Assembly: GCA_013288075.1 (NCBI GenBank)
Contig: JABDCQ010000002.1
Coordinates: 32,447-96,446, forward strand
DNA length: 64,000 nucleotides
DNA from: Chlamydiota bacterium
GTDB lineage: Bacteria; Chlamydiota; Chlamydiia; Chlamydiales; Rhabdochlamydiaceae
Direction: 5' to 3'
The notes under the pieces were generated by a model. The model had not been told where the DNA came from and did not search any database. It saw only the letters and a program-made list of their open reading frames with translations. The translations under genes were made by a program, and so were the position numbers. Numbering within the stretch: position 1 is the stretch's first letter; each line of letters opens with the position of its first letter. This document shows positions 24,232 to 39,536 of the stretch, piece by piece.

Positions 24232-24285
24232 GTGGGGCAAGCTGGACTGGGGAACCCTTAGCGGGGTTATAAGTCCCTTTTCCTT
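24232..24285 (-). repeat. Degenerate copy of the 3' part of tRNA(CAT) (candidate old att remnant)
   Basis: GTGGGGCAAGCTGGACT is identical to the tRNA 3' end at 39463-39479. A decayed AGCGGGGTTATAAGTCC follows, compared with AGCGGGTTATGAGTCC in the tRNA. Confidence 0.6.
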
Positions 24286-24355
24286 CCACAAACCAGTATA
24301 ATTCACTTAGGTATACTTCGACAGGGTTTAAATATGAACCGAAATTTAGACGACA

Positions 24356-25360
24356 TCATATTTCCCTGAGTTTCTTGTATAAATATACCATTTTAAAATC
24401 GGGTCCATAGGTATTTAACTCGAATAAAGGTTCAAACCCATTTCTCTGATAGAAAGCGTAGGTCTTTATGTAATGGGGGTCCTTTTCAGCAGGGCTTAGT
24501 GTCTCAACAGTCATGGATGCACACTGCTTCTTTGAGCAGTAAGCCTCAGCATACTTCAAAAGAGAGCAACCTATTCCTTGACCCTGGTATTCTTTTTTGA
24601 CTGCCATCCAGTAAATATTAGCATTGTTAGGAAAAGGCATTTCTAAGGAGATCAATCCTACGTAAATCCCGTTGAGCTTCGCACCAAAAGTAAGTAGCTC
24701 CCTTACACCTTTTGCATAGCGTTCATTAGCCTGTTGAATGCCAAAATATTCAGGAAGAGAGAGTGTGAGCTCTCGGCATGCTTTTTCAGATTCGCTAGCA
24801 GCTAGCGGGTGAATGGTTAAATCCATTTGTCCGCCTCTATCACACGGACTTCCTTGAGAGGTGAATTTTAAAATAATCATGGGATGCGGTTTGGGTTTTG
24901 GGACCGTCTTAAGCGTTTTCTCAAATTGACCATGTGAATATCGGCTGACAATTCTATCCCAAAATTCTATTGCTGCTGTATTTTCTGGCATTTGAGAAGT
25001 TTCCCATACGCCAGGAAACAGGTTGAAGACTTGCTCTGCCACATAGCGCCCAACGCCTTTTCCTTGAAATTTAGAAACAATGAAAAATTCTCCAATGTTC
25101 CAATCTACATCTGGCGTGCTTCCTACTTTGTTGATTAATACAAAGCCCGCTAATTCGTCGTCCACTTTGATTAAAAATGCATGCCTGTCTGGGTTCTCAC
25201 AATAGGAGCTTAGATCTATACATTCAAATAGGCCATTGGATGGGGTTTCCCAAGTAGGTAAAAAGCCACAATATCTTGACATTTCATAAACGTAAAAGCG
25301 GCCGAGATTTTGGATGGTAGTCTTGTCTTCTTTAGTTGCTTTGGATAAGGTAATCTTCAT
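24356..25360 (-). CDS. Tandem-GNAT (two acetyltransferase domains) protein
   Basis: Two GNAT cores are present: FIVSKFQGKGVGRYVAEQV and MAVKKEYQGQGIGCSLLKYAE. The start at 25360 (MKITLSKAT) is chosen over the longer track ORF and is uncertain. Confidence 0.65.
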   Translation of the reverse strand: MKITLSKATKEDKTTIQNLGRFYVYEMSRYCGFLPTWETPSNGLFECIDLSSYCENPDRHAFLIKVDDELAGFVLINKVGSTPDVDWNIGEFFIVSKFQGKGVGRYVAEQVFNLFPGVWETSQMPENTAAIEFWDRIVSRYSHGQFEKTLKTVPKPKPHPMIILKFTSQGSPCDRGGQMDLTIHPLAASESEKACRELTLSLPEYFGIQQANERYAKGVRELLTFGAKLNGIYVGLISLEMPFPNNANIYWMAVKKEYQGQGIGCSLLKYAEAYCSKKQCASMTVETLSPAEKDPHYIKTYAFYQRNGFEPLFELNTYGPDFKMVYLYKKLREI

Positions 25361-25820
25361 TTTCTTCCTGGAAAGTTCTTTGCAATTAAAGCTATTAGTC
25401 AGCGGTCTGATCTTCTCAAACATAGGCTCCTTTAGTTTCCGATATCGGTCGCCTTCATGATTATACCCAAACAACCTCAAAAGTGATTCTAAACTAACAA
25501 TGAATAAGAACCGATTGCAAAATTTAGCGCATATGAATCCAATTACGTCCGTCTCTTCTTCATGTAGATGTAATAGGTTATCACCAACAATTTGCGATAA
25601 GCAAGGTAGAACTGATATCCAGCTTCGAGCTCAATTGTTAGATTCTTCAAAAATTAATTGGAAACAGCCGAGAAAACTTACGAAGAATACAGGAAAATCG
25701 AAGATAGGCTAGAGAGCTTGGGAGACTGTCCTCGAAAAGCGATCCGTCTTAAATCATTGAGATATGGGATGGCTCAACTTACATTAGAAATCACATGGTT
25801 AAAAGAAGGAATTTTAGAAT

Positions 25821-26240
25821 ATGTTCATTGTTAAACACACTGTAGAGACAAAAGCTACTCCCACACAGATTTGGAGCATTTGGCAAGACGTTGAAAATTG
25901 GAAAACCTGGGATGAGCAAATTGAATTAAGTCAAATTGATGGCCCATTTCAGACAGGCACTCACGGTTCTACCAAATTTATAGGAACCCCTCTTTTCAAG
26001 ACCTTACTAACACAGGTTGAGCCCTTAAAATTGGTGGTTCAAGAAGCCTATCTTTCTTTTGCAAAAGTTGTCAGTTATCAATCTATGAGGCAAGTGGATG
26101 ATAAAACAGAGGTCACTTTTCAAGTGGAGATTCGGGGGCCTTTATCATTTTTCTATGCCTGTATGCTTCGCCGATTTATCAAAAAGAAAATTCCTCCCGA
26201 GATGAAATTGATGCTTAAAAGAGTACATGCACTTGGATGA
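25821..26240 (+). CDS. SRPBCC (START/polyketide-cyclase-like) family protein
   Basis: 139 aa. The TPTQIWSIWQDVENWKTWDE N-terminal pattern is typical of SRPBCC proteins. Confidence 0.6.
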   Translation: MFIVKHTVETKATPTQIWSIWQDVENWKTWDEQIELSQIDGPFQTGTHGSTKFIGTPLFKTLLTQVEPLKLVVQEAYLSFAKVVSYQSMRQVDDKTEVTFQVEIRGPLSFFYACMLRRFIKKKIPPEMKLMLKRVHALG

Positions 26241-26349
26241 AAAAAGCGCGGATTTCTCCGAGCCTTTTGTTGAAATTAAGGAGGGATATTCAGAATTTAT
26301 CGAGAAGAAACTTCCTGTTTTTTCTCTATGAAACATCGAGTGTCGTAAA

Positions 26350-37480: not shown

Positions 37481-37492
37481 AATAAAGTTACG

Positions 37493-37837
37493 TTATAAAA
37501 ATTGAATTATAGGATCTACAGCCAATACAGCAATCAGAGTCAACCAAGGTACTGACCAGAAAAACAATGTTTTACTGTATTCTTTACACACATAGCTTGA
37601 CCACATAAGATCTATGCTTACAGGCAACGAAAGAGGGATTAATGAGATGGTAAAGATAATTGATAATCCCTTTGGGATTGATAAATGAGGATTATCAAAT
37701 ATCATAGCAGAAAGCAATGCAAAATAAGATAGAAGTGGCAAAAGCAGAACATAAATAATCGTCCAAATTACAGCACAAATCTTGGCTTTCCTTTTACGGT
37801 TTTGAATGGGTTCTGCCTTATTTTGACAGCTAGACAT
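37493..37837 (-). CDS. Small polytopic membrane protein (paralogue of 37148-37480)
   Basis: The ATG at 37837 overlaps the stop of the upstream 506-aa gene (ATGTCTAG). 3-4 hydrophobic segments. Confidence 0.5.
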   Translation of the reverse strand: MSSCQNKAEPIQNRKRKAKICAVIWTIIYVLLLPLLSYFALLSAMIFDNPHLSIPKGLSIIFTISLIPLSLPVSIDLMWSSYVCKEYSKTLFFWSVPWLTLIAVLAVDPIIQFL

Positions 37838-39350
37838 ACAGAAGCTCCTCTTCTTTTTCCTCAATCTTAGCTGCAAGTGAAGGGCGTACTGAAGGACTTC
37901 TATATTTTTCTATAAGCCGCTTAACTTCATTTTGATAGCATTCTCTGCAGAATTGATGCTCAACATAACAGTTTGGATCTGGATCTAATATTGTTATATT
38001 GCTAATTCTTTTCATGATGCTTTCATAGTGACTCATGCGTTGACTCATGAAACTCTCAAACACATGAGCGTCTACGGAATCAAGATAGAGTAATGCATCA
38101 TCCAAGGCCCATCTTTTAATGATGGCTCCTTGGCTTAAACCTTCTTTTATTCCAAGATATCTGTGTACGGCTAAAGATTGAAAATAGGGTGATCCCATAG
38201 ATGAAACTAGGTCGTTTTCGCTAGCAAAATTGTGGGAGTCGGGATGACAGCTATCAACCTCAAGAAATGATCCTCCTCCAAAAGTGAAAATGCGAATTTT
38301 TTGCCTTTCATTAATGTTTAATAGTTTTAAAGCATGCTCAGAAATAATTGCTCCTTGACTATGTGCAAATACGATAACTGGAGGTTGGGAATCTTCTTTG
38401 TTTGATAATGCAAGAAGATATCTTAAAAATTTAGCAGCCCAAGAAACAATAGGAGCATCAATTCCAATTTTTAAAGAAATGCATACTCCAACATCTTTTG
38501 CTCCAAGAATTAGAGAGTCATTTGGTAATGATAAAACCTCTTCTTCATTTGCATAGACAGAAATTAACTCTGCAGACTCTAATGCGCCTTCTCTCGAATT
38601 CAAAATGCCATTAATAAATCCCCAAATGCATTGACCTGATTTTTTCTTGCCAACGGTTCTCACTAGCGTTTCAATTTCTCCTTGAATTGGAGAAATTGCT
38701 TCTTCAGGGATTTGCACATTCCAAATACAGTGGCTAGGCCTGGAGCGTAAATGTTCAGAATCATTTTTGTGACGAACAATTACTGCATCTAGTCGATTCG
38801 TTTTCACCCATTCCATAGCCTCTTTCTTTGATAAGACGAGATCTGTTCCTATCAAGTAGGTGTCTTCCAAATCACCATTTTCTATCTTTGCGGTAATCTT
38901 CGGCAGAACGCATGTTTCTTCATTTCCAATCAATTCATATCCGCATGATTTTTCAATGACTTTTAGTAGTTTTTGAAGTTCTATATCCGTAAAGGATTTG
39001 AGTTTTTTTTCTATAGGCACAGGTATGCAACTACTTAACTTTGCAGCAAAAGCGTCGGTATTTTTGGGATGGTAATGTTCTGCTATTGCCTGGACAGTTG
39101 CATTGTAATACTTTTTGGAATGAAGCCAAGCTGAAAGTGCCTTATGACCTTGCTCTGGATAGGAAAAAATTGCAAAACCGTGACAAGAGCCTATTGAACC
39201 ATTGCTTCTTGCAAAATGACTGTGACTTTTTACTAATCCAGGATTATTTATCCGCCACGATAAATTTCCTCCTCTACGAATATGCTTATTGCCACATTTA
39301 TCAAAGTAGAGGATTGTTTTTTCATCTTGTGGGCATGCTATTCGATACAT
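37830..39350 (-). CDS. Multidomain protein with a C-terminal lipase/esterase-like alpha/beta-hydrolase domain
   Basis: VIVFAHSQGAIISEHA (GxSxG-type AHSQG) follows WGFINGILNS. The N-terminus has WRINNPG...GFAIFSYPEQGHKALSAWL. The middle segment VLSKKEAMEWVKTNRLDAVIVRHKNDSEHLRSRP is reminiscent of DUF3892. Confidence 0.6.
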   Translation of the reverse strand: MYRIACPQDEKTILYFDKCGNKHIRRGGNLSWRINNPGLVKSHSHFARSNGSIGSCHGFAIFSYPEQGHKALSAWLHSKKYYNATVQAIAEHYHPKNTDAFAAKLSSCIPVPIEKKLKSFTDIELQKLLKVIEKSCGYELIGNEETCVLPKITAKIENGDLEDTYLIGTDLVLSKKEAMEWVKTNRLDAVIVRHKNDSEHLRSRPSHCIWNVQIPEEAISPIQGEIETLVRTVGKKKSGQCIWGFINGILNSREGALESAELISVYANEEEVLSLPNDSLILGAKDVGVCISLKIGIDAPIVSWAAKFLRYLLALSNKEDSQPPVIVFAHSQGAIISEHALKLLNINERQKIRIFTFGGGSFLEVDSCHPDSHNFASENDLVSSMGSPYFQSLAVHRYLGIKEGLSQGAIIKRWALDDALLYLDSVDAHVFESFMSQRMSHYESIMKRISNITILDPDPNCYVEHQFCRECYQNEVKRLIEKYRSPSVRPSLAAKIEEKEEELLYV

Positions 39351-39462
39351 TTCTATTTCCTTTATTCGACCCGTTTTGGCAGTGTGTTTTTGGGAAGCAG
39401 ATCAAAACAATCAACCAACTTTTTTTATCTAAATACCTCGTATACAAGAACTTGGGAAAAAG

Positions 39463-39536
39463 TGGGGCAAGCTGGACTTGAACCAGCGACCAGCGGGTTA
39501 TGAGTCCGCTGCTCTAACCAACTGAGCTATTGCCCC
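39463..39536 (-). tRNA. tRNA with anticodon CAT (elongator Met or lysidine-modified Ile2; not initiator)
   Basis: Reverse complement is GGGGCAA-TA-GCTC-AGTTGGTTA-GAGC-A-GCGGA-CTCATAA-CCCGC-TGGTC-GCTGG-TTCAAGT-CCAGC-TTGCCCC-A. It folds as a cloverleaf. The 1:72 pair is G-C, so it is not a bacterial initiator. No CCA is encoded. Confidence 0.85.

Follow-up and report, generated by a model that had tools for sequence, protein, structure and literature searches.

A Probable Decayed Tandem Array of tRNA-Targeting Integrative Elements in an Environmental Chlamydia

The 64 kb stretch of DNA analysed here, hereafter the window, covers positions 32,447 to 96,446 of contig JABDCQ010000002.1 from a Chlamydiota bacterium (family Rhabdochlamydiaceae, assembly GCA_013288075.1) and carries a tRNA gene with the anticodon CAT, tRNA(CAT), followed by a series of accessory genes. 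The region downstream of this gene very probably holds the decayed remains of three or more integrative elements that accumulated by tandem accretion, here called islands 0, 1 and 2 in order of distance from the tRNA. Partial copies of the tRNA, the element arms that flank these copies, the relic of a tyrosine integrase, intact homologous elements in other genomes and the mobility of one gene module (p506) were all observed directly. For the window, this means that approximately 15 kb downstream of the tRNA would be a stack of eroding mobile elements and not native chromosome. The coordinates of the features are collected in Table 1.

Table 1. Features of the tRNA(CAT)-associated array in the window, from the tRNA downstream.
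Feature	Position (nt)	Strand	Description
Intact tRNA, anticodon CAT	39462/3..39536	minus	attL of the array; ARAGORN and Rfam (71.7 bits)
Island 0, p506 module	37135..39425	minus	p506 37830-39350, tm127 37493-37876, tm110 37148-37480
Tyrosine integrase relic	37003..37134	minus	codons ~54-72 fused in frame to ~331-355
DUF1016/YhcG nuclease gene, split in two open reading frames	36136..37003	minus	DUF1016_N 36746-37003, YhcG_C 36136-36765 (Pfam)
Island 1 cargo	32553..35680	minus	RibD_C 35141-35680, GNAT relic 34825-35105, VOC-EVE-MarR-APH 32553-34713 (Pfam)
Distal arm of island 1 (left-flank family A)	32364..32400	minus	clusters with 14 metagenome att fragments
att copy 2	32318..32363	minus	anticodon loop to tRNA 3′ end plus 3 nt, 2 mismatches
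Integrase-proximal arm of island 2	32236..32317	minus	matches L131, L062 and L138
Island 2 cargo	24356..32180	.	methyltransferase, truncated beta-lactamase, GNAT, deoxyribosyltransferase-like, SDR-DUF2867, photolyase, SRPBCC, tandem GNAT (Pfam)
Distal arm of island 2	24280..24345	minus	aligns with left flanks of att fragments in L098, L103 and L114
att copy 3, decayed	24228..24279	minus	21 identical nt and recognisable remainder

The tRNA(CAT) Gene and Its Partial Copies

The 3′ end of the tRNA(CAT) gene points toward lower coordinates in both the ARAGORN and the Rfam predictions. ARAGORN labels the gene tRNA-Met; however, its closest Escherichia coli match, at 84% over 68 nucleotides (nt), is a CAT-anticodon gene annotated as tRNA-Ile by PGAP, and on this similarity the window gene is probably the lysidine-dependent tRNA-Ile2. 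Two partial copies of the gene lie downstream on the same strand, with decay growing with distance from the tRNA. Copy 2 differs from the tRNA at 2 of 43 positions (32321-32363), and the identity runs 3 nt beyond the tRNA end to give 46 nt at 96%, while copy 3 retains 21 identical bases (24228-24248) and is decayed but recognisable up to ~24279. The 19-mer GTCCAGCTTGCCCCACTTT occurs three times in the window against 0.02 occurrences expected by chance, and a 23-mer of the attachment (att) sequence occurs twice against 0.00 expected. A profile built from 87 att copies of metagenome contigs was searched against the whole window and scored the tRNA, copy 2 and copy 3 at E = 7e-20, 1e-15 and 1.2e-5, respectively, with no further att copies in the 64 kb. 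A direct repeat of the tRNA 3′ part thus marks the distal ends (46 nt in one case and a decayed ~50 nt in the other), as expected of a tRNA island. The initial annotation, made from the sequence alone, had described tRNA(CAT) with two repeats of its 3′ half in the same orientation, and the gene predictions, alignment, chance counts and att profile all agree with that description.

The att Site across Metagenome Contigs

The final 20 nt of the tRNA were used to scan metagenome contigs, which gave 94 matching stretches; 80 of these were analysed as loci (designated by L numbers). Among the 87 att copies in these 80 contigs, 24 belong to intact tRNA(CAT) genes and 63 are fragments. Every fragment starts at the anticodon stem or loop, with either (C)GGACTCATAA or CTCATAA; a segment from the anticodon loop to the 3′ end is a classic type of tRNA att site. 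Directly 3′ of many att copies lies a member of a cluster of 37 open reading frames (ORFs) of ~355-420 amino acids (aa) with the Pfam domains Phage_integrase and Int_N. Where at least 900 nt of downstream sequence was available, such an integrase ORF followed within 700 nt for 14 of 42 fragments and 5 of 16 tRNAs. The related elements also carry replication-type genes with CHC2 zinc-finger, DUF3987 and DUF927 domains, in addition to AbiEii and DUF1016 genes, and tandem sets of two or three att copies occur in six other contigs. At least eight recurrent families can be distinguished among the sequences left of the att fragments, and the right flanks form families as well. On the 5′ side of the tRNA, the contigs of relatives share a conserved core (rpl genes, nusG, secE, tRNA-Trp, tuf, tRNA-Thr and further genes up to p703 and DUF1207), while the 3′ side has different content in every contig. 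The 23-mer att had no exact match in viral contigs, leaving a phage origin without evidence.

Small units without an integrase are also found among these loci: att copies lie 246 bp to 3.5 kb apart in L085, L073, L135, L129 and L138, and in L073 the right flanks of the att copies are identical.

Element Arms beside Copies 2 and 3

Three of the sequences that border the copies fall within recurrent arm families of the metagenome contigs: those to the left of copies 2 and 3 and the one to the right of copy 2. Copy 2 has on its left side an arm of the largest family, whose 15 members share TTGGATGGT...CCCTC directly before CTCATAA. On its right side, ~85 nt align to the stretch between att or tRNA and integrase in L131, L062 and L138, and the similarity ends ~55 nt short of the methyltransferase gene, indicating that the integrase of island 2 has been deleted. 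The left flank of copy 3 matches that of L098 at 30 of the 33 nt adjoining the core. A tRNA-like fold of the family A arm together with the core was considered and rejected by inspection, there being no acceptor or anticodon-stem complementarity.

An Integrase Relic Preceding a Split DUF1016 Gene

When the 37 integrases from related elements were used as tblastn queries, a single site in the window was matched, in the gap between tm110 and the DUF1016_N ORF. The translation of this relic, FKFDQHKQQHTFTELLERY joined to THLDVQITQNFSKHISERILQGNSI and ending in a stop codon, aligns to both ends of the L113 and L084 integrases, with 63-91% identity to the N- and C-terminal parts of the intact integrases that related elements encode. 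The relic comprises 44 codons, with an in-frame internal deletion between two RY dipeptides, and the catalytic tyrosine alone is left. Its stop codon overlaps the DUF1016 start (ATGA), as it does in intact elements, and the order of relic and DUF1016 gene matches the intact integrase-DUF1016 pair of L084, L113 and L131. In L084, L118 and L131, the gene after the integrase is intact and encodes 361 aa, and the split DUF1016 gene shares 76-81% identity with it. No intact integrase was found in the window by tblastn with the same queries.

Pfam searches covering every intergenic gap from 24.2 to 39.5 kb in six-frame translation gave no recombinase, excisionase or transposase signal, returning the GNAT relic alone. 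The integrase relic escaped Pfam because it is too short, and it was found with the integrases of related elements alone. The initial annotation had reported neither an integrase nor an excisionase remnant and had proposed a tblastn search over 24-39.5 kb; tblastn with the integrases of related elements has now yielded the degraded integrase and overturned that negative.

Island 0 and the p506 Module

The unit nearest the tRNA encodes p506 and two small membrane proteins (tm127 and tm110); no integrase is present, and the distal att has been lost. Comparison with the flanks of L156 and L153 places its junctions at ~39425, approximately 37 nt below the tRNA end, and at ~37134/37135. At the latter, ~480 nt have been lost, comprising a distal arm, att, a proximal arm and integrase codons 1-53.

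The module recurs in several other settings. In L153, with 86% nt identity to the window over 2.2 kb, it is arranged as p506-tm-tm-att-int and is followed by att and an intact 378-aa integrase. L160 is a complete 7.4-kb island (att-int-HicAB-...-p506-tm-att) with the module as distal cargo, L157 is an integrase-bearing island with the module that ends in a decayed family A arm and att, and L089 is a 2.7-kb att-p506-tm-att unit without an integrase. The module is also present in a contig of a metagenome-assembled genome whose Dus is 64% identical to that of the window, and in L154/L155 at 83% nt identity. Homologs of p506 reach 94, 90, 87 and 85% aa identity, as compared to a maximum of 66-75% for core proteins. 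The island has a G+C content of 0.36 and a tetranucleotide distance of 0.313, above the core maximum of 0.283. The p506 module is therefore a recent import, given its 94% homologs and its deviant G+C and tetranucleotide composition, and would be the most recent unit of the array. The initial annotation had counted two islands; the arrangement in L153 and L160 instead shows its island 1 to be composite, with the p506 module as a separate unit, and gives at least three units.

Searches of Pfam, NCBIfam and PDB sequences returned no match for p506. Its AlphaFold model (pLDDT 80.8) matches alpha/beta hydrolases, including a carboxylesterase, a cutinase and a thioesterase, and an HSxG motif is invariant in the alignment of homologs. 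The protein is accordingly predicted to have an alpha/beta-hydrolase fold, which lends partial support to its earlier label as lipase-like. The model match and the invariant HSxG motif rule out p506 as a hidden recombinase.

Beyond this, in the window, L153, L154-L157, L160 and L089, one or two small hydrophobic proteins invariably come after p506, and the trio is 83-94% conserved in hosts whose core proteins are 64-75% identical to those of the window. In L154/L155 the trio lies among core-like genes without an att. A role for the trio as toxin and immunity proteins or as effectors would be a guess alone.

Islands 1 and 2

The cargo of island 1 includes a VOC-EVE-MarR operon that adjoins an att fragment in L106, where the three proteins are 91, 60 and 61% identical at the aa level. 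Pfam bears out the gene assignments of the initial annotation for both islands: in island 1, APH, MarR, EVE, VOC, RibD_C and the split DUF1016; in island 2, the truncated beta-lactamase, methyltransferase, deoxyribosyltransferase, photolyase, SDR and SRPBCC genes; and GNATs in both. Across the array, cargo proteins reach identities in other genomes (p506 94%, VOC 91%, DUF1016 76-81%) above the 75% maximum of core proteins, which is evidence of horizontal transfer. Island 2, which lies between copies 2 and 3 without an integrase, has the form of a cis-mobilisable element (CIME) or accretion unit, as does L089. A gradient of age is apparent, with island 0 deviant in composition, islands 1 and 2 core-like, and copy 3 the most decayed.

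Proposed History and Alternative Explanations

A history consistent with these features can be drawn from what is established for tRNA-targeting tyrosine integrases. A tyrosine integrase would recombine the attP of an element with the 3′ part of tRNA(CAT), from the anticodon stem or loop to the 3′ end, and every insertion would rebuild the tRNA and shift the older element, with its partial tRNA copy, farther downstream. Since insertion would always take place at the tRNA, the unit nearest to it would be the youngest. Island 0 (37.1-39.4 kb), with the p506 hydrolase and two small membrane proteins, would thus be the latest arrival, now missing its integrase end and distal att. Island 1 (32.4-37.1 kb) would have been left with the 44-codon relic, the split DUF1016 gene, RibD_C, the GNAT relic and the VOC-EVE-MarR-APH genes, and island 2 (24.3-32.3 kb) with ~85 nt of its proximal arm and its cargo. 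The order of insertion and the present immobility of the units are what we infer from this scheme. The initial annotation had likewise proposed serial integration at the tRNA with islands now fixed and eroding; the core of that proposal is supported, while its details on integrase remnants and on two units do not stand.

Several observations weigh against this account or against its extent. The window itself lacks the att expected between islands 0 and 1, which is deduced from other genomes, and neither island 0 nor island 2 holds any integrase trace by tblastn with the 37 integrases or by Pfam on the gaps. The tetranucleotide distances of islands 1 and 2, 0.194 and 0.204, are near those of the core chunks (0.190+-0.017 and 0.173+-0.020), and their G+C content lies inside the core range, so that island 0 alone differs from the core in composition. 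The initial annotation had named core-like composition as a ground for abandoning its proposal, and this applies to islands 1 and 2 but not to island 0; it is not decisive, however, because the elements circulate among chlamydiae of similar G+C. No close relative of the window was found in 5.8 billion proteins, the best non-self matches being 75% for Dus and 66% for p703, which makes an empty-site comparison impossible. Lastly, two sets of genes beyond copy 3 question the limit of three units. The GMCox oxidoreductase gene and the adjoining outer membrane protein (OMP) gene (18534-20910) are 83.5% identical at the nt level to L117 5701-8119, and a 2-oxoglutarate (2OG)-Fe(II) oxygenase gene (14670-15551) is 80% identical to a gene in L094.

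In L117, the proteins are 86% (GMCox) and 69% (OMP) identical to their window counterparts, and the pair lies directly left of an att fragment that is followed by an integrase fragment and a DUF3987 gene. In L094, the 2OG oxygenase gene is located 4.7 kb 3′ of the tRNA, and the core genes DUF1207 and p703 are 58-59% identical to those of the window. As both the GMCox-OMP pair and the 2OG oxygenase gene also look mobile, the array may be longer than three units and reach past copy 3, judging from these sequence matches.

An alternative is that the integrase-less, att-flanked units are CIME-like cassettes moved by an integrase encoded elsewhere or by an incoming element. Copy 2 and both of its arms are nearly intact, L089 and the short att-att units in L085, L073, L129 and L135 have no integrase of their own, and the p506 module retains 83-94% identity between hosts with core proteins at 64-75% identity to those of the window. 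The complete islands with their own integrase (L160 and L157) also hold the p506 module, however, and transfer of whole elements followed by decay therefore explains its distribution. Moreover, island 0 has no distal att and copy 3 is degraded, leaving two of the three units without a usable pair of sites, and the 64 kb contain no intact integrase. Cassette movement of this kind is consequently considered unlikely for the window.

Far less probable is an origin of the partial copies by local duplication or unequal recombination of the tRNA, with ordinary chromosomal genes in between. The core-like composition of islands 1 and 2 and the absence of an intact integrase from the window would fit such an origin, but the copies begin exactly where 63 independent att fragments begin, an integrase relic lies inside the region, and cargo genes recur beside att sites elsewhere. 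The copy flanks, in addition, match the arms of integrase-bearing elements from other genomes, and these arm homologies exclude local duplication as the source of the copies.

It is scarcely credible that faulty assembly or binning fused the contigs of different organisms at a common tRNA sequence, even though the source is apparently metagenome-derived and 46-nt repeats can mislead assemblers, because the independent Logan assembly L001 (SRR8433449) spans DUF1207-dus-tRNA-island 0-island 1-copy 2 into island 2 with 100% protein identity to the window, and the repeats are shorter than sequencing reads. An integron was also rejected: the window has no gene of the IntI type, its repeats derive from the tRNA 3′ part and are not attC, and the units are multi-gene, of mixed orientation and each from an element with its own integrase.

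Comparison with Known Systems

The array preferred here, built by serial insertion at tRNA(CAT), corresponds to what tRNA-targeting tyrosine-integrase islands normally do, with tandem accretion added, a well documented process. Williams, writing in Nucleic Acids Research in 2002, reportedly described tRNA-targeted islands with P4-type tyrosine integrases and the class of att sites that extends from the anticodon loop to the 3′ end. As in P4-type islands, the block of identity extends from the anticodon stem or loop through the tRNA 3′ end, the tRNA is rebuilt and the far end marked by a partial direct repeat, the integrase lies directly 3′ of the tRNA or att in intact relatives of the window elements, and the cargo is of accessory or defence type (DUF1016, AbiEii, HicAB, ParDE). 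The window differs from them in that no integrase has survived beyond a 44-codon relic, an internal att has been deleted and the composition of two units out of three is undistinctive.

Tandem accretion is known from integrative and conjugative elements (ICEs), integrative and mobilisable elements (IMEs) and integrase-less CIMEs, including the ICESt1/ICESt3 family of Streptococcus thermophilus. Shared with these are units in the same orientation separated by att copies, and units that lack recombination genes but have att on both sides, such as L089 and, in the window, the stretch of island 1 from the deletion to copy 2. A difference is that none of the units showed conjugation or mobilisation genes; the intact relatives carry primase- or helicase-type genes instead (CHC2 zinc finger, DUF3987, DUF927).

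Islands in Parachlamydiaceae are comparable. Protochlamydia amoebophila UWE25 carries Pam100G, a 100-kb conjugative island at tRNA-Gly with 17-bp repeats (PMC548262), and Protochlamydia naegleriophila Diamant carries PnaD_GI4, with an integrase next to tRNA-Met and a cargo of OMP-like and acetyltransferase genes, while PnaK_GI1 holds a photolyase-like gene and short-chain dehydrogenases (PMC5010888). These islands resemble the window in their chlamydial hosts, their tRNA-adjacent location, their short direct repeats and their decaying mobility genes, whereas Pam100G differs in its tRNA and in being a 100-kb conjugative island. Neither publication describes att arm families, a stacked array at a CAT tRNA or a spread over many chlamydial lineages. 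Three features go modestly beyond the literature examined: how widely one att core is used, how diverse its arms are, and the presence of att-flanked units that lack an integrase.

The hotspot, with its att core of 46-50 nt, arm families and cognate integrases, offers a concrete picture of the exchange of accessory and defence genes in chlamydiae. Environmental chlamydiae inhabit amoebae and other hosts, and we know of no genetic tools for them; the att core and the integrases could guide the design of tools for site-specific integration. A wider proposal is that the tRNA(CAT) 3′ part is a landing pad common to much of the environmental Chlamydiae, used through at least eight arm families and probably several integrase lineages with one core, and that integrase-less cassettes of the p506-tm-tm type are exchanged in trans between stacked arrays. 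This is a speculative and rather improbable extension of the data; if true, it would amount to an integron-like site of gene shuffling in obligate intracellular bacteria.

Host Context and Neighbouring Genes

The flanking DUF818/CHLPS, DUF1207 and OMP beta-barrel genes place the window in the environmental Chlamydiae. A dus gene lies between DUF1207 and the tRNA in the window lineage alone, and none of 56 dus loci in GTDB has the tRNA next to dus or any neighbour in common. The window dus (39556-40581) is located 19 nt upstream of the tRNA and has a G+C content of 0.52 and a third-position G+C (GC3) of 0.56, against 0.41 for the genome; in 15 relatives, dus is only ~3.7 G+C points above its flanks. 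The window gene looks like a translocated or imported copy.

A second DUF1016/YhcG gene, which is intact (2361-3629), is 52% identical to genes at the distal ends of the L079 and L098 elements, and an additional DUF1016_N fragment lies at 9243-9671. Both may be left over from older elements; no att was detectable in their vicinity.

Long, near-perfect hairpins are located at 996-1097, 5101-5200, 18348-18481, 21126-21250 and 42097-42163, with none inside 24.2-39.5 kb. They occur on either side of the GMCox-OMP pair and between DUF1207 and p703, two convergent genes. This hairpin family, with arms of 45-48 nt that are 98-100% complementary and built on (C/T)CTCTGTGGT (17 motif hits against 2.9 expected), is similar to repetitive extragenic palindromic (REP) sequences or miniature inverted-repeat transposable elements (MITEs).

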